DNA from: an uncultured Acidobacteriota bacterium
GTDB lineage: Bacteria > Acidobacteriota > Vicinamibacteria > Vicinamibacterales > CAVVIG01
DNA: 64,000 nt
Assembly: GCA_963757655.1 (NCBI GenBank)
Contig: CAVWSQ010000001.1
Span: 1,970,996 to 2,034,995 of the forward strand
Direction: 5' to 3'
A model generated the notes under the pieces. The model made no database searches, was not told the origin of the DNA, and was given only the letters and a program-made list of their open reading frames with translations. The translations under genes and the position numbers were made by a program. Each line of letters opens with the position of its first letter. The first letter of the stretch is position 1. Below, piece by piece: positions 3,569 through 14,897 of this stretch.

Positions 3569-5915
3569 GCCCCGAGTTTATCGCGCCACAGTTGTCCTGG
3601 CACTGGCCCTCGTCGCGTCCACCGCAGCGGCGCAGCCGCCGCTGCCCGCCATCGAACAGCCGCTGCTCGGATCGACGCTGACGGCCGAGGTCCTGCGCGA
3701 CCTGCCGACCGCCAGCAATGTGTTCGCCGTCCCCGAAACCATCCAGCTGGAAACGGTCAGCGATCTGTTCTCGGCCGGAGGCCTGAACGCGGCGGCGGCG
3801 CCGAAAGTCGGCGGCTACCTGAGCTCCTGGACCCAGACGCAGTACCGTGTCGGCGACGTGCCGATCACCGATCCGCTCGCCGGCGGGACGCCGCTGCTGC
3901 TGCCCTTTCTTCCCTTGTGGTCGAACCTCACGATTGCCACCGGCGCGATGGGGCCCGACGACAACGCCCCGGGGGTGTCGATCGCACTCGAGCCGCCACG
4001 CCCCGGCGCGACCTGGTCGCGCACGCTCGACGGTTCGCTCTCCGGCTCGCCGCTTTCGGCGGCGCCCGCCGGCAGCGTGCCGGCGGTCGATCGCGTCGAC
4101 AACTGGCTGGACGGAACCGCGATTGTCAGCGGCCCGATCACCCCGCGCCTCGGCATCGTCGCAGCGGGGGCGTGGCATCGCCTGACCCACGTGGCGGCGG
4201 CTGCCACGACCGAGCTCACCGACAGCGTCGGATCGGGCTTCGCACACCTCGTCTTCGCCGCCACGCCGCGCGACGAGATCCGCGCGCTGGGCTGGGCGCA
4301 GCAGGCGACGACGGCGGCGCGCCGCGATACCGGGCTGCACCTGCAGGCCACGTGGGAACGCAAGAACCCGGCAACCTATTCGTGGCGGCTGTTTGGCGGC
4401 TACAGCGGACGCGATCGCACCGCCACCACCGCGGCCACGATCGTGGTCGACAGCCTCGACACCGATCCGGTCTCCGATCTGGTCGACACCGGCGCTGGCG
4501 TCGCGCGGCGCTGGATGGCCGGCGCCCGCCTCGCCGCCCCCGCGGACCGCCGGCTGCCGTCAATCGGCGTCGATCTCGACTCCGCTGAAGTGCGCCTCGA
4601 CGCAACCGCGATCGCACAGGTCAACGAGCTCGTCGACGGCGGGTTGACGCGGGTGTGGACGTATCACGGCAGCAGCGCCCCCGACGTCCGCCAGCTCACG
4701 ACCGTCGCCGCGTTCGCCAACGAGCACCTGACATCCGGACGCCTGACCCTCGACGCCGGGCTCAGGCTCGACGCCGTCACCGGTGACGCCAACGGCGCGA
4801 CGCGTGGCATCGACTGGAAGACCTGGCTCCCGCGCGGCCTGCTTCGCTGGCAGATCTTCAACCAGGATGACGTCGCCGCGTACGTCGGCTACCGCAGGAC
4901 CGCCTATCAGCTGCCGCTGAACGTGCTGGCGATTGGCGATCCCGCCGCACCGTTCGCCGATGTGTCGCGCGCGGCGGCCGGCTCGTCGATCGGCCCGCTG
5001 ATCGCGCGCGTCGGGCCGGGCAGCGGCGGCGACGTCGTCTTCACGCAGATCGATCCGGCGCTGGAACGGCCAACCACCGACGAACTCGTGCTCGCGCTGC
5101 GCGCGCGGCCGCGCCAGGGTCTCGAGCTCGAGCTGGCGCGCGTGGTCAAGCGCGAGACGTCGCTGCTCGGCTACATCGACACCGGCGTCACCGCGTCGGA
5201 ATACACCGCGTTCCAGGTTCCCGATCCGAGCTTCGTGCCCGACAGCCCGGTCGGCGCAGCCCAGGTCACCGCATTGAGCCGCCCCGCGGGTGCCTACGGC
5301 CGCGATCGGTATTTGCTGACGAACCGCACCGGCGACCCGGCAACCTCGTGGGCGATCGAGGCGACGGTGCGCGCCACGACCGGGCAACTGCAGCTCCTGG
5401 TTGGTCTGGCGTTGACCGAGGCGAACGGCCCGGCGGCTGCGGTCGGCTTCCTGCCGACGGAAAACGATCAGGATGTGATCGGAAGCATGCTCGTCGATCC
5501 CAACGCGCAGACAAAGGTGCGCGGTCAGCTGTTCCAGGATCGATCGCACATCGGCAAGATCGCCGCCGCGTATCACTTTCCGGGGCGCACCACCGTCGGC
5601 GCGATCTTCCGCTATGCCGACGGTCAGCCGTTCACGCGGCTGGTGATCGCGCCGGCGCTGACGCAGGGCGCGACCGCGGTGCGTTCCTATGCCAACGGTG
5701 GATCGGCGTTCACCTTCGTCGGCACCATCGACGTCCGCGTGCAGAAGGCGTTCACGGTCGGGCGGAGCGAGGTTGCAGCGGTGGTGGACGTGTACAATCT
5801 GCCCAACATCGACAACGAAGTCATCGAGTACGTCGTGACCGGTCCCAGGTTCCGGACCCCGACCGCACTCCAGCCGCCGCGCACGGCGCTGGCCGGACTG
5901 CGTGTCACGTTCTAA
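3567..5915 (+). CDS. TonB-dependent-receptor-like outer-membrane beta-barrel protein
   Basis: Track ORF 3435..5915. Start moved to ATG 3567, where a signal peptide begins (MPRVYRATVVLALALVASTAAAQP). Plug-like N-terminal region, long beta-rich body, C-terminus LAGLRVTF ending in Phe. Confidence 0.7.
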   Translation: MPRVYRATVVLALALVASTAAAQPPLPAIEQPLLGSTLTAEVLRDLPTASNVFAVPETIQLETVSDLFSAGGLNAAAAPKVGGYLSSWTQTQYRVGDVPITDPLAGGTPLLLPFLPLWSNLTIATGAMGPDDNAPGVSIALEPPRPGATWSRTLDGSLSGSPLSAAPAGSVPAVDRVDNWLDGTAIVSGPITPRLGIVAAGAWHRLTHVAAAATTELTDSVGSGFAHLVFAATPRDEIRALGWAQQATTAARRDTGLHLQATWERKNPATYSWRLFGGYSGRDRTATTAATIVVDSLDTDPVSDLVDTGAGVARRWMAGARLAAPADRRLPSIGVDLDSAEVRLDATAIAQVNELVDGGLTRVWTYHGSSAPDVRQLTTVAAFANEHLTSGRLTLDAGLRLDAVTGDANGATRGIDWKTWLPRGLLRWQIFNQDDVAAYVGYRRTAYQLPLNVLAIGDPAAPFADVSRAAAGSSIGPLIARVGPGSGGDVVFTQIDPALERPTTDELVLALRARPRQGLELELARVVKRETSLLGYIDTGVTASEYTAFQVPDPSFVPDSPVGAAQVTALSRPAGAYGRDRYLLTNRTGDPATSWAIEATVRATTGQLQLLVGLALTEANGPAAAVGFLPTENDQDVIGSMLVDPNAQTKVRGQLFQDRSHIGKIAAAYHFPGRTTVGAIFRYADGQPFTRLVIAPALTQGATAVRSYANGGSAFTFVGTIDVRVQKAFTVGRSEVAAVVDVYNLPNIDNEVIEYVVTGPRFRTPTALQPPRTALAGLRVTF

Positions 5916-11011: not shown

Positions 11012-12175
11012 ATGCGCAACAGAACGTTTGTCTTCATCAGCTCTGTCGCCGTCGCGACGGCCGCCCTGTGCGTGAGCGGCGGGTCGCTCGCCGCGCAGGT
11101 GCCAGCCCGGCCGGCCGCGGCAAAGCCGGTCAGCGTGCCGACAAAGGCCTCGACGATCAAGCGCACGGCCGAGGGTCACCCCGATCTGCAGGGCACCTAC
11201 GACGTCGCGACCATGACGCCGGTCGAGCGTCCTGCCGGCGTCACCAGCCTGACCATGACGAAAGAGGAGGCGGCCACGCGCGAGCAGTACGAAGCGGCCC
11301 GCCAGGTGAAGAACGATGCGCCGTTGAGCGGCGACCGCAGCGCGCCGCCGGTCGGCGGCGAGACCACCACCGGCAAGTCGTACCTCGAGTTCCTCGAGCG
11401 CCTCGGCGGAGGCGTGGTTGGCGGCTACAACAATTTCTGGCTCGCCGGTGGCACGCAGCTGATCGAAGTCGATGGCCAGAAGCGCAGCTCGCTGGTGATC
11501 GATCCGCCCGATGGCCACATCCCGCCGATGAAACCGGGGGCGCGCGCGCGCAACGCGGCGTTCGCCGCCGGCGGAGCGGTGGCGCCAGACGCCAGCGAAT
11601 CGGCGGCCTCCGGGCCTCCCGGCGCATTCGACGGTCCCGAGCTGCGCCCGCTGGCCGAGCGCTGCCTCCTCGGTTTCGGCTCGACGTCAGGTCCCCCGAC
11701 GCTGCCGAACTACTTCTACAACAACCTCAAACAGATCGTGCAGACCAAGGACAGCGTTCTTCTGCTGAACGAGATGGTGCACGACGCGCGCGTGGTGCGC
11801 ATGAACGCCGAGCACCTGCCGCCGACGATCCGGCGGTGGATGGGCGATTCAGTCGGTCATTGGGAGGGCGACACGCTGGTGGTCGACACCACCAATTTCA
11901 CGAGCAAGACCCGCTTCAACGGATCCGGCGATCAGCTGCACGTCGTGGAGCGTTTCACCCGCGTCGACCCGAAGACGATTCTCTATCGCTTCATCGTCGA
12001 CGACCCCACGACCTGGGACCGCGCGTGGACGGGCGAGTACCCATGGCGGGCGACCGACGAGAAGCTCTACGAGTACGCGTGCCACGAAGGCAATTACTCG
12101 CTCGGCGGGATGCTGCGCGGTGCGCGGCAGAAGGAAGCCGACGACGCGGCGGCGAAGAAGACCGGCAAGCAATAG
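11012..12175 (+). CDS. hypothetical exported protein
   Basis: 387-aa ORF. Signal peptide MRNRTFVFISSVAVATAALCVSGGSLAAQ. Strong GC3 coding signal. No family recognised. Confidence 0.75.
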   Translation: MRNRTFVFISSVAVATAALCVSGGSLAAQVPARPAAAKPVSVPTKASTIKRTAEGHPDLQGTYDVATMTPVERPAGVTSLTMTKEEAATREQYEAARQVKNDAPLSGDRSAPPVGGETTTGKSYLEFLERLGGGVVGGYNNFWLAGGTQLIEVDGQKRSSLVIDPPDGHIPPMKPGARARNAAFAAGGAVAPDASESAASGPPGAFDGPELRPLAERCLLGFGSTSGPPTLPNYFYNNLKQIVQTKDSVLLLNEMVHDARVVRMNAEHLPPTIRRWMGDSVGHWEGDTLVVDTTNFTSKTRFNGSGDQLHVVERFTRVDPKTILYRFIVDDPTTWDRAWTGEYPWRATDEKLYEYACHEGNYSLGGMLRGARQKEADDAAAKKTGKQ

Positions 12176-12186
12176 CGCCGCGGTAG

Positions 12187-13335
12187 CTTTCGGTAGGGTC
12201 CGCCCGCGCGCGCTGGCCCGATCTGTCGATGGAAATCCAGGCGACAGGATCGATTCCTGGTTTCGGTAGTGTCCGGCTTCAGCCGGACCGTCGGTTCGAT
12301 CGTATCTGGCAGCCGGACCGTCGGTTCGATCGTCTCTGGAAGCCGGACCTGTCGCCGTCTCCGCCAGCCTGGCGGGTCCTGTCCGCGAACAGCCCACTCG
12401 AGTGCTCGGCCACATGCTCTCGCACCTCCGCGAGTTTGCCTGCGCGCTCGAGCGGGCGCCCGTTCGCGGCCACCCGCGCGCGCTGGCCCGATCCGTCGAT
12501 GGAAATCCAGGCGAACGATTCCCGGTTTTCGGTAGTGTCCGGCTTCAGCCGGACCGTCGGTTCGATCGTATCTGGCAGCCGGACCGTCGGTTCGATCGTC
12601 TCTGGCGGCCGGACCTGTCGCCGTCTCCGCCAGCCTGGCGGGTCCTGTCCGCGAACAGCCCACTCGAGTGCTCGGCCACACGCTCTCGCACCTCCGCGAA
12701 TTTGCCTGCGCGCTCGAGCGGGCGCCCGTTCGCGGCCACCCGCACGCGCTGGCCCGATTCGTCGATGGAGATCCAGGCGATCGATTCCCAGTTTTCGGTA
12801 GTGTCCGGCTTCAGCCGGACCGTCGGTTCGATCGTCTCTGGCGGCCGGACCTGTCGCCGTCTCCGCCAGCCTGGCGGGTCCTGTCCGCGAACAGCCCACT
12901 CGAGTGCTCGGCCACACGCTCTCGCACCTCCGCGAATTTGCCTGCGCGCTCGAGCGGGCGCCCGTTCGCGGCCACCCGCTCGCGCTGGCCCGATTCGTCG
13001 ATGGAGATCCAGGCGATCGATTCCCAGTTTTCGGTAGTGTCCGGCTTCAGCCGGACCGTCGGTTCGATCGTCTCTGGCGGCCGGACCTGTCGCCGTCTCC
13101 GCCAGCCTGGCGGGTCCTGTCCGCGAACAGCCCACTCGAGTGCTCGGCCACACGCTCTCGCACCTCCGCGAATTTGCCTGCGCGCTCGAGCGGGCGCCCG
13201 TTCGCGGCCACCCGCTCGCGCTGGCCCGATTCGTCGATGGAGATCCAGGCGATCGATTCCCAGTTTCGGTAGTGTCCGGCTTCAGCCGGACCTGTCGCCT
13301 TCCCAGCCAGCCTGGCGGGTCGTGTTCGCGCGCGT
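12187..13335. repeat. tandem array of five 236-270-bp units (last one truncated), each carrying a GTAG-hairpin REP-like element and 0-2 copies of a nested 30-bp unit
   Basis: The anchor string cgctggcccg recurs at 12211, 12481, 12747, 12983 and 13219 (periods 270, 266, 236, 236). GGTAGTGTCCGGCTTCAGCCGGAC is present in each unit. The array fills the gap between convergent genes ending at 12175 and 13350. Confidence 0.92.
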
Positions 13336-13349
13336 GATGGAAGGCACTG

Positions 13350-14897
13350 CTACGAACTCAAGGAGGCGCAGACGGTATTCACCGCGCGCTCCAGCTGCGG
13401 CGTCGTGAACGGCTTCGACAGCAACGGCGCGCCGATCTCGCGGATCCGCTGCTGTGCCTCAGGGACAGTCGTGTAGCCCGACATGAAGATCACGGGCAGG
13501 CCGGCCCGCGCCTTGCGCGCCGCCTCGGCCAGATCGATGCCGTTGATCCCGGTCCTGAGCACGACGTCGGTCAACAACACCTCGGGCGCGCCAGGTCCCT
13601 GGATCAGCAGCAGCGCCTCGGTGGCCGCCTCGGCGACCAGCACGCGATGGCCGAGGCTTTCGAGCTGGCGCCGCACGATCGCACGCACGTCCGGTTCGTC
13701 CTCGACCACCAGGATGGTGCGCGGCGCCGATGACGGCGTGACCGCCACCGCATTGGTGGCAATCCTCTGGCGATCGCTGCCCGCCAGCGGCAGAAACAGG
13801 CTGACGGTCGTGCCGCGCCCCGCCTTCGAGGTGATCTTCACGGTCCCGCCCGACTGCTTCGCGAAGCCGTAGACCATGCTCAGTCCAAGGCCGGTGCCGC
13901 CGCCGCCGGACTTGGTCGTGAAAAACGGTTCGAACACCCGCGCCAGCACCTCCGGCGGCATGCCGCAGCCGTTGTCCTCGAGCGCGATCCGGACGTAGAG
14001 GCCAGGCTCGAGATCGTCTTCCGTCTTGCGCCGCGCACTGATCTTGATCGTCGAAGTGTGGATCGCGAGCGACCCGCCGTCCGGCATGGCATCGCGGGCG
14101 TTGAGCGCCACGTTGAGCAGCGCACCCTCGAGGGCGGCTGGATCCGCGTAGGCCATTCCCGCGTCGGTGCTGGTCGACGTCGTGACATGGATGGTGGCGC
14201 CGAGCGTCCGCCCCAGCAGCCGCACGATTTCGGCGACCACGACGTTGACGTCCACCGCCTGCGGGTTCAGCAGCCGACGCCGCGAGAACGCCAGCAGGTG
14301 CCCGGTGAGATCCTTGCCGTGCAGCGTCGCGCGCAGCACCGCGTCGACGATCTCGTCGGTGTAGGGATCCTTCGGAAGGTAGGACTTGAGCAGCTCGAGG
14401 TTGCCGAGAATGATCGCCAGGATGTTGTTGAAGTCGTGCGCCAGACCGCCGGTCAGCTGGCCCACGGCTTCCATCTTCTGCGATCGGAACAGCGCCTCCT
14501 GCGTCCGTTCGAGGTTCTCGTGCGCCTCGCGCAATTCGGTGATGTCGTGCGAGATGCCGAACACGCCGAGGCTCCGTCCGTCGGTGTCGCGATAGACGCC
14601 CTTGGACACCAGATACCGCTGCGGCTGGCCGTCCTGCCCGGTCGCCACCCCCTCGAACACCTGCGGCTTGCCGGTCGCGAGCACCTGACGATCGGCCTCG
14701 ATGAAGGCGCGCGCGTCGACGTCCGGGTAGAGCTCGTAGTCGTTCCTGCCGACGATGTCCGCGTGAGATTTGCCGATGAAGCGGGCGAACGCCTGGTTGA
14801 CCAGCACGTAGCGCCCCTCGAGATCCTTGATGAAGATGGCGTCGGGCGTCGCTTCGATCACCGCATGGAGGATGTCGAAGCTATTGGGGATCGCCAT
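13350..14897 (-). CDS. hybrid sensor histidine kinase/response regulator (PAS-HisKA-HATPase-REC)
   Basis: 515-aa ORF. PAS-like N-terminus, H-box GGLAHDFNNIL, N/G boxes (NARDAMPDGG, DNGCGMPPE, GTGLGLSMVYG), C-terminal receiver (ILVVEDEPDVR ... LLTDVVL ... LSKPF). Confidence 0.92.
   Translation of the reverse strand: MAIPNSFDILHAVIEATPDAIFIKDLEGRYVLVNQAFARFIGKSHADIVGRNDYELYPDVDARAFIEADRQVLATGKPQVFEGVATGQDGQPQRYLVSKGVYRDTDGRSLGVFGISHDITELREAHENLERTQEALFRSQKMEAVGQLTGGLAHDFNNILAIILGNLELLKSYLPKDPYTDEIVDAVLRATLHGKDLTGHLLAFSRRRLLNPQAVDVNVVVAEIVRLLGRTLGATIHVTTSTSTDAGMAYADPAALEGALLNVALNARDAMPDGGSLAIHTSTIKISARRKTEDDLEPGLYVRIALEDNGCGMPPEVLARVFEPFFTTKSGGGGTGLGLSMVYGFAKQSGGTVKITSKAGRGTTVSLFLPLAGSDRQRIATNAVAVTPSSAPRTILVVEDEPDVRAIVRRQLESLGHRVLVAEAATEALLLIQGPGAPEVLLTDVVLRTGINGIDLAEAARKARAGLPVIFMSGYTTVPEAQQRIREIGAPLLSKPFTTPQLERAVNTVCASLSS

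Follow-up and report, generated by a model that had tools for sequence, protein, structure and literature searches.

A tandem array between convergent genes of an uncultured Vicinamibacterales bacterium, read as an amplified mosaic of a GTAG-type REP and a MITE relic

The array described here fills the 1.1-kb gap between two convergent genes (positions 12180-13335) in a stretch of 64,000 nucleotides, hereafter the window, from the genome of an uncultured Acidobacteriota bacterium of the order Vicinamibacterales (assembly GCA_963757655.1). Its repeated unit joins a repetitive extragenic palindrome (REP), here termed REP-A, to a long hairpin, module B, which appears to be the core of a miniature inverted-repeat transposable element (MITE). 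With a probability of about 0.78, we regard the array as non-coding, selfish or neutral DNA, that is, a mosaic of REP and MITE relic that was inserted between the genes and then amplified in tandem by unequal recombination or replication slippage. The structure is real but ordinary, namely a tandem REP cluster that took in a MITE relic, and it represents no new kind of system. The source genome comprises 6.43 Mb with 65.7 % GC in 8 contigs (cited below as C1 to C8), and the window corresponds to C1:1970996-2034995; coordinates without a contig refer to the window.

Four full units of 270, 266, 236 and 236 bp, a truncated unit, and a remnant at the left edge make up the array. The anchor sequence CGCTGGCCCG, by which an earlier note on this DNA had delimited the repeats, was located at 12211, 12481, 12747, 12983, and 13219, exactly as claimed there, with one further, unrelated occurrence in the window at 50274. 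Tandem Repeats Finder reported two tracts, 12203-12856 (period 266, 2.4 copies, 94 % matches) and 12576-13297 (period 236, 3.1 copies, 99 % matches). All units lie on the + strand and are composed of a linker of ~45 bp, REP-A, a variable number of half-REP sub-repeats, and the ~120-nt hairpin of module B. Unit 1 (12211-12480, 270 bp) contains two extra 30-bp sub-repeats between REP-A and module B; unit 2 (12481-12746, 266 bp) has the same layout and is set apart from unit 1 by 12 substitutions and a 4-bp indel; unit 3 (12747-12982, 236 bp), with a single extra sub-repeat, differs from unit 2 by 5 substitutions and a 30-bp indel; and unit 4 (12983-13218, 236 bp) has 0/236 substitutions with regard to unit 3, both matching a BLAST query of one unit at 100 %. 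Units 3 and 4, previously called nearly identical, are in fact identical, and the greater divergence attributed to units 1 and 2 was borne out by the unit alignment. Unit 5 (13219-13335, about 121 bp) is truncated, as had also been stated: it is cut short after its REP, no extra sub-repeat follows, and a module-B remnant at about 13305-13335 has lost the hairpin centre. The series of extra sub-repeats from unit 1 to unit 5 is therefore 2, 2, 1, 1, 0. The sub-repeat itself, CAGCCGGACCGTCGGTTCGATCGTATCTGG, which spans 12280-12354 on the + strand in 2.5 copies according to Tandem Repeats Finder and recurs at 12546-12620, combines a spacer with the 3' half of the REP, and behaves like the arrays with a 30-bp period found elsewhere in the genome, for instance the 15-copy array at C1:1076296. 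The left-edge remnant ('unit 0', 12180-12210, + strand), read from the sequence and by comparison with the module-B alignments A1 and A2 introduced below, carries two GTAG heads at 12183-12186 and 12193-12196, and its GGGTCC abuts GCCCGCGCGCGCTGG, an arrangement probably equivalent to module B minus its hairpin centre. The linker of the window array is ~70 % similar to that of one other array in the genome, at C2:1020933-1021267.

A BLAST search of the genome with one 236-bp unit detected the repeat genome-wide, not as one repeat but as two independent families. While unit positions 45-80, the REP part, gave dozens of matches, positions 119-233, the module-B part, gave about nine other matches, some 110 bp long and of ~85 % identity, including a tandem trio at C6:324493/324727/324975 and a pair at C2:1020933/1021156. 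Both hairpins that had been recognized in each unit exist. GTCCGGC-TTCA-GCCGGAC corresponds to the REP; CCGCCA-GCC-TGGCGG arises when the 5' foot of the long hairpin of module B folds locally in an alternative way.

The short hairpin qualifies as a bona fide GTAG-class REP with a partner gene for a REP-associated tyrosine transposase (RAYT), because it is present in 240 copies, against none for the control, and because a RAYT gene is flanked by it on both sides. REP-A, GTAGTGTCCGGCTTCAGCCGGAC, was mapped by a whole-genome pattern scan to 12266-12288 (+ strand) and comprises a GTAG tag, a 7-bp stem, and a TTCA loop; further copies at 12532-12554, 12798-12820, 13034-13056, and 13269-13291 follow head-to-tail on the same strand, GTAG plus TGTCCGGC-TTCA-GCCGGAC(A) being found in 5/5 units. 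With up to 3 substitutions allowed, the 240 copies form 117 clusters spread over all contigs, and the reversed control yielded 0. Fifty clusters hold at least two copies, and that of the window (C1:1983261-1984286) has the orientation +++++. Head-to-tail arrays of REP-A with periods of 26-108 bp are frequent in the genome, the large ones including C1:1076296-1076792 (15 copies, 30-bp period), C3:182109-182580 (13 copies, 34-bp period), C8:27004-27552 (7 copies, 108 bp), and C2:868579-869058 (8 copies, alternating 48 and 93 bp). Many large arrays end with a single inverted REP at one side. Overall, neighbouring copies form 85 head-to-tail and 38 inverted pairs, an excess of the former that is unusual against published surveys. 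Four Y1 transposase (Y1_Tnp) genes were found, and the one at C8:179888-180466 has REP-A arrays on both flanks; its open reading frame (ORF) matched NCBIfam NF047646 (REP-associated tyrosine transposase) with 102.5 bits at a cut-off of 80. A second RAYT, at C2:999646-1000236 (NF047646, 103.9 bits), is bordered by another REP family, GTAGGGGACGGCCTTCAGGCCGTCC, as well as long GGCGGGAC-type minisatellites, and no REPs flank the remaining Y1_Tnp genes (C5:109982 and C2:589617). The earlier suggestion of an expanding REP-associated duplication finds support in the 240 GTAG-REP copies, the RAYT flanks, and the many head-to-tail REP arrays; what it missed is that, beside the REP, half of each unit is the core of a separate MITE.

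This other half, module B, is a 123-nt imperfect hairpin occupying 12362-12484, 12628-12750, 12864-12986, and 13100-13222 on the + strand (126-130 bits with the covariance model R1). The model was built from alignment A1, which comprises 11 module-B copies of the source genome and folds into one imperfect hairpin with 35 pairs, 8 of them with compensatory changes. Searches with R1 recovered 13 copies in the source genome and detected module B in 15/41 relatives and, across the order, in at least 68/301 genomes and at least 45/119 genera, the order-wide count being a lower bound with 11 candidates scored per genome. In alignment A2 (46 copies from about 38 loci), 95.6 % of the stem cells were paired, and changes on both sides occurred in 22/35 pairs (197 cells). 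None of 500 shuffles reached these pairing values, and sliding the partner by 1-3 columns reduced pairing to 37-45 %. As A2 was fitted to the model, the covariation numbers are somewhat inflated; the effect size and the slid controls nevertheless leave hardly any doubt about the maintenance of the hairpin. Watson-Crick pairs account for 91.7 % of the stem cells, and wobble pairs are rare and without clear strand asymmetry (20 G.T versus 8 A.C in the alignment fitted to the + strand, excluding one invariant T.G and one recurrent A.C pair). Near-invariant stretches are also found among the unpaired positions (GGGTCCTGTC, ACAGCCC, GTGCTC, and GCCACCCGC), the apical loop varies, and copy lengths range from 113 to 127 nt. 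Module B also forms tandem arrays at 2 other loci of the source genome and in at least 5 other genomes; in the latter, the periods range from 171 to 353 bp. Module B often lies 0-30 nt from ORF ends, and its gene context, where callable (33 cases), was convergent in 16, co-directional in 14, and divergent in 3. An all-against-all BLASTP comparison of the ORFs of 38 loci revealed no shared neighbour gene beside module B, except for artefacts that translate module B itself. A toxin, a transposase, or an RNA-guided nuclease as a partner of module B was rejected, as no neighbour recurs across the 38 loci.

Evidence for the origin of module B came from distant genomes, in which its hairpin is prolonged by outer inverted repeats. 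In public genomes, at least 120 stretches, almost exclusively from Acidobacteriota, contain the exact 22-mer GGGTCCTGTCCGCGAACAGCCC, and the bin SMAG_U9489 harbours about 80 copies of the left terminus compared with 3 for the control; alignment of the copies of this bin displayed sharp element boundaries. The full element has 15-bp terminal inverted repeats and the ends GAGTGCGTTGCAAAA...TTTTGCAACCTGCTC, the pair of termini being also written GAGTGCGTTGCAAAA / GAGCAGGTTGCAAAA. Among 36 complete copies from several genomes, length was mostly 144-157 bp with a mode of 156 (outliers 102 and 192 bp), and the flanking trinucleotides were identical in 28 (TAA/TAA in 14, TTA/TTA in 12, AAA in 1, and TCA in 1), with no discordant TAA/TTA pair in the whole set. 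The MITE duplicates a 3-bp TWA target site. Copy number ranges from 1 to about 80 per genome, and the distribution over the at least 45/119 genera is patchy. By its sequence, module B is accordingly read as the core of a 156-bp MITE that has spread through the Vicinamibacterales. Duplications of 3 bp of the type TNA or TWA are typical of some groups of the IS5 family of insertion sequences and of the related eukaryotic PIF/Harbinger elements, and the TWA duplication points to an IS5-family or Harbinger-type DDE transposase. For Harbinger elements, a 3-bp target duplication is stated in PMC12730594. The location of the MITE at stop codons in genomes of 66-70 % GC follows from its target being TAA or TTA. 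Literature searches turned up no description of the repeat family to which module B belongs.

Several further observations concern this family. In SMAG_U9489 (including 4990-5480 of the relative L042), MITE copies lie in AT-rich islands of GGAATTT / AAGAATT minisatellites within an otherwise GC-rich genome, which may be a preferred target of the MITE; this bin, listed at about 10 Mb, may itself be a mixture. Long hairpins with a deleted centre and retained feet recur across genomes, as at 5285-5330 of the congener L038, at G271:C1:1349836-1349916 (an 81-bp copy with intact termini), and in the window at 12196-12216 and 13305-13335.

In the source genome, only the core of this element is found alongside REP-A. 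Only 3 terminus-like sequences and no inverted pair were detected, and target duplication was seen in none of the module-B copies. Since they lack the MITE termini, the copies of the window are best regarded as relics of the family. A strict REP-A lies 8-97 nt upstream, in the same orientation, of 8 of the 13 module-B copies, and three or four more are preceded by an altered REP-A that has either lost 1 nt or gained an insertion in its loop. The copy at C4:207511 is the only one without REP-A, and it has kept degenerate termini. At C6:324700-325000, the REP-A upstream of module B has its loop interrupted by an insertion of ~35 nt (GTAGTGTCCGGCTT-[TCTTGTCACGCCAAAATCCGCCGCGGCCAAGGCGG]-AAGCCGGACC), which looks like a nested insertion into the REP loop. 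Two subtypes of the REP-plus-core composite, with the foot sequences CCAGCCTGGCGGGG and GAGCGCCNNGGCGGGG, are found at several loci and in congeners.

The same junction in relatives further illuminates the history of the array. The convergent gene pair is kept in five of them (L037, L038, L040, L042, and L047). In L037, L040, and L047, the two stop codons are separated by 0-4 bp (e.g. ...CAGTAAGGTCACC...). In L038, a congener whose flanking protein is 80 % identical, the genes enclose an 825-bp gap with three head-to-tail units of a 190-bp period, each consisting of REP-A, module B, and an unrelated linker, together with a centre-deleted module-B remnant. L042 has a 500-bp gap with one complete MITE in opposite orientation and no REP-A. 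From this comparison it follows that the junction has been hit at least twice independently, and the arrays found there would therefore have either grown separately or diverged greatly. A second convergent spot, orthologous to C4:207511, contains no module B in 4 congeners, each of which has a different hairpin filler. Across five congeners (L143-L147), this spot is occupied by a different hairpin element in each case (module B, the REP GTAGTGCGGACCTTCAGGTCCGC, and terminator-like stems), indicating rapid turnover of 3' intergenic hairpins. Because the fillers differ, an empty-site alignment did not reveal the exact insertion borders of the C4:207511 copy.

Based on these data, we propose the following course of events. 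The ancestral junction would have consisted of two convergent stop codons 0-4 bp apart, likely one of the few TA-containing and insertion-tolerant spots in a genome of 66 % GC. Here, a MITE or an already fused composite of REP and core may have inserted, its termini being subsequently lost or never present. Once there, copies in the same orientation could have provided direct repeats, and unequal recombination or replication slippage between these would amplify everything in between, including the linker. That linkers are locus-specific would be explained in this way, because amplification took in the sequence between same-orientation copies. The identical units 3 and 4 would represent the most recent duplication, and the stepwise change in sub-repeats as well as the centre-deleted remnants might reflect the usual instability of hairpin-rich tandem DNA, the centre deletions having presumably struck both edges of the array. 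A putative effect on the flanking genes, such as a block to read-through or stabilization of 3' ends, would be a by-product.

Some observations weigh against this model. The module-B copies of the window carry neither terminal inverted repeats nor a recognizable target duplication, and the single feature suggesting their MITE origin is the homology of the core. Across genera, the termini are less conserved than this core, and copies devoid of terminal inverted repeats persist at 6 loci of the source genome, both of which are unexpected from simple decay and could mean that the core is under selection. In addition, a limited search (the MITE-rich genome G317, the source genome, and G271) retrieved no autonomous transposase element with the MITE termini: none of the seven DDE_Tnp_1 loci of G317 has matching termini nearby, and no inverted terminus pairs at a spacing like that of insertion sequences occur in the source genome or G271. 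The 3-bp TWA duplication is likewise the one character that suggests the IS5/Harbinger assignment, and it is gradients in the sequence that point to the amplification mechanism.

An alternative with the same composition, which we consider unlikely, is that the RAYT transposase, and not unequal recombination, generated the tandem copies. A segment between same-orientation REPs would leave the DNA in single-stranded form, together with its cargo of module B and linker, and be inserted again beside an existing GTAG-REP. Such a REP-bounded segment is similar to an IS200/IS605 element in having a hairpin at either end, both in direct orientation, and the idea would explain why a composite without terminal inverted repeats is found at several loci. 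It would also agree with the predominance of head-to-tail pairs among REP-A clusters, many with very regular periods, with the upstream REP-A of most module-B copies, strict or altered, with the two composite subtypes common to congeners at other loci, and with the presence of a RAYT gene flanked by REP-A. However, RAYT activity on such units would be conjecture, and recombination or slippage accounts just as well for the gradient of identity, in which units 3 and 4 are identical. Moreover, the linkers are locus-specific in L038 and ~70 % alike between arrays of the source genome, to which local amplification fits better.

Somewhat less likely again is the idea that the core hairpin is a module constrained in sequence and structure that outlives the transposon ends and that, in the source genus, was captured by the REP/RAYT system as a cargo composite spreading and amplifying head-to-tail, or else was taken over as a structured RNA at the ends of convergent genes. 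If true, either event would mean that a DDE-type MITE had handed its core over to the host or to a Y1 transposase system acting on single strands.

The second branch of this idea, co-option of module B as a structured RNA that acts as a bidirectional read-through barrier, a 3'-end stabilizer, or a small RNA, with the array as its multi-copy version, we judge improbable. It is consistent with the very strong covariation and the conservation of unpaired stretches across at least 45 genera, with the retention of the core without transposon termini in the source genus, with a location that is usually right at the 3' end of a gene and seldom at a divergent promoter, and with a predicted folding stabler than that of shuffled sequences on both strands (z of -3.3 and -2.8). 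Yet a search of Rfam 15 at E <=1 gave no match other than a chance tRNA-Sec (21 bits against a gathering threshold of 47, E = 0.48), a promoter scan detected 0 sigma-70-like promoters in the array, and the sole terminator-like site lies outside the array, at the edge of the upstream gene, and is within chance expectation. In co-directional settings, 10 copies were opposite to and 4 in the same orientation as the genes, a bias that is not significant, and the rare wobbles without clear strand preference fit a DNA hairpin or quasi-palindrome correction as well. Finally, presence and absence differ at orthologous sites, and the clear target-site duplications signify mobility. The earlier proposal of a multi-copy small-RNA array with one terminator-like hairpin per unit likewise found no support and is improbable, given the missing Rfam and promoter matches, the position of the terminator-like site, and the inconsistent orientation.

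That the array or its copy number results from mis-assembly of repeats is very unlikely with respect to the existence of the array, albeit possible with respect to the exact copy number. With little or no difference among unit 3, unit 4, and the beginning of unit 5, the number of copies is difficult to assemble. On the other hand, units 1, 2, and 3/4 differ by 5-14 substitutions plus indels, implying at least three real unit types; an 8-contig genome suggests that long reads were used; the independent assembly of the congener L038 has a three-unit array at the same junction; and tandem module-B arrays are present at 2 other loci of the source genome and in at least 5 other genomes. The region had also been called a possible recombination or assembly hotspot, of which the recombination half fits our data, whereas a pure artefact is unlikely in view of the differing unit types and the L038 array.

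We give hardly any credence to the unit being a recycled gene 3' end, in which a minus-strand coding fragment (VAANGRPLERAGKFAEVRERVAEHSSGLFADR...) was duplicated together with a downstream REP: third-codon-position GC is high in the minus-strand frame, positions 12811-12975 and 13047-13211 contain 54-aa ORFs that are identical to each other, and the frame is kept over about 35 codons in several other copies, but the peptide belongs to no Pfam family, frameshifts or stop codons interrupt the frame elsewhere among the copies of the source genome, copy lengths (113-127 nt) differ by non-multiples of 3, no parent gene was found among the 13 source-genome and more than 150 other copies, and the element has its own termini and duplications. 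Furthermore, the conserved stretches (hairpin arms) are invariant at all codon positions and the variable stem sites change in complementary pairs, and hence the constraint acts at the level of nucleotides and not of codons. Coding readings in general were rejected, as frames of either strand gave no Pfam match and six-frame translations of all copies are broken. The conclusion that the array does not encode a repeat protein thus stands, on the grounds of the absent Pfam match, the frame broken between copies, and the nucleotide-level constraint; the argument originally offered for it, a period that is not a multiple of 3, is wrong for the 270-bp unit and right for the other periods. Equally upheld is that the array is not a CRISPR, as the entire unit of 236-270 bp repeats with nothing unique between units.

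With respect to known systems, the array is closest in composition to the clusters of the GTAG REP super-family and their RAYTs (Nunvar 2010, PMC2817692; Di Nocera 2013, PMC3733652). Shared features are the GTAG tag beside a 7-bp GC-rich stem with a 4-nt loop, the hundreds of copies, and a RAYT flanked by the same REP; likewise, clusters that reiterate the REP in tandem together with flanking DNA, and REPs located between convergent genes less than 20 bp from both ORF ends, were described in PMC3733652. In contrast, clusters here are mostly head-to-tail, an arrangement that is rare in most genomes according to the same survey, the inclusion of a second element extends the period to 236-270 bp, well beyond the usual length, and Acidobacteriota are absent from the phyla in which that survey recorded GTAG repeats. 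The bacterial interspersed mosaic elements (BIMEs) of E. coli are similar in being extragenic mosaics of tandem REPs and conserved linkers with variable copy number. However, REPs alternate regularly in BIMEs, whereas 5/5 REPs of the array are on the + strand and the 'linker' contains an unrelated transposon relic; the array is a tandem REP cluster and not a strict BIME.

Module B is also reminiscent of REP doublets forming hairpins (REPINs; Bertels and Rainey 2011, PMC3116915) in that it is a hairpin of ~100-120 nt with conserved inverted arms, a variable centre, compensatory stem changes, and proliferation within the genome. It differs in that the family exhibits hallmarks of the DDE type (terminal inverted repeats and a 3-bp target duplication) and does not consist of two RAYT-associated REPs, as its arms are unrelated to REP-A and flank no RAYT here. 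A pattern scan detected no inverted REP-A within the array, which accordingly does not qualify as a REPIN. Module B as the REPIN of any of the four RAYT/Y1 genes was rejected too: one is flanked by REP-A, one by GTAGGGGACGGCCTTCAGGCCGTCC, and two by neither, and none by module-B arms.

Bacterial MITEs that form long hairpins at gene ends include the Correia elements of Neisseria, Tourist-like (PIF/Harbinger) elements, and derivatives of the IS5 family (IS1031 and ISL2 groups). Like these, the module-B family has a length of about 150 bp and lacks an ORF, its full copies in other genomes have terminal inverted repeats and a short duplication rich in A/T (here TWA), the whole element can be folded as one hairpin, and it inserts beside stop codons; it is small, multi-copy, and variable in presence and absence between relatives. 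Unlike in these, conservation is higher in the inner core than at the termini, the limited search found no autonomous partner, and the source genus has only terminus-less cores linked to REP.

The ORF list and Pfam agree with the earlier delimitation of the gap by the convergent gene ends at 12175 (+) and 13350 (-). The upstream gene (11012-12175, + strand) encodes a protein of 387 aa, and its TAG stop at 12173-12175 forms the left edge of the gap. This protein is conserved in Acidobacteriota, with 519 relatives found (the best 82 % identical), all from this phylum and for the most part labelled Vicinamibacterales; it matched no Pfam or NCBIfam family. The convergent downstream gene (13350-14897, - strand) encodes a hybrid sensor histidine kinase with PAS, HisKA, HATPase_c, and receiver (REC) domains by Pfam, its stop codon (CTA on the + strand) being at 13350-13352. 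Elsewhere in the window, 48817-48982 is a different, MITE-like palindrome of 166 bp with about 22-bp perfect inverted ends (GTGTCCCGTCTCCGTGATTCGC...) that shares no sequence with module B; the CTAG on both of its sides would fit a TA target of the IS630 type.

To conclude, the array documents a GTAG-REP/RAYT system and a 156-bp MITE family with a TWA target in the Vicinamibacterales, an abundant yet poorly studied soil lineage. It has a practical side for annotation, as spurious ORFs, such as peptides of the SGFSRT or VRLKPDTT type and the 54-aa and roughly 200-aa ORFs of the gap, arise from this array and from hundreds of related copies of REP and MITE and pollute protein databases derived from Acidobacteriota metagenomes. 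A modest oddity is that the termini of the MITE are less conserved than its core, which in one genus is accompanied by a REP. Abutting convergent stop codons emerge as a recurrent site of landing and turnover for such elements in high-GC genomes.

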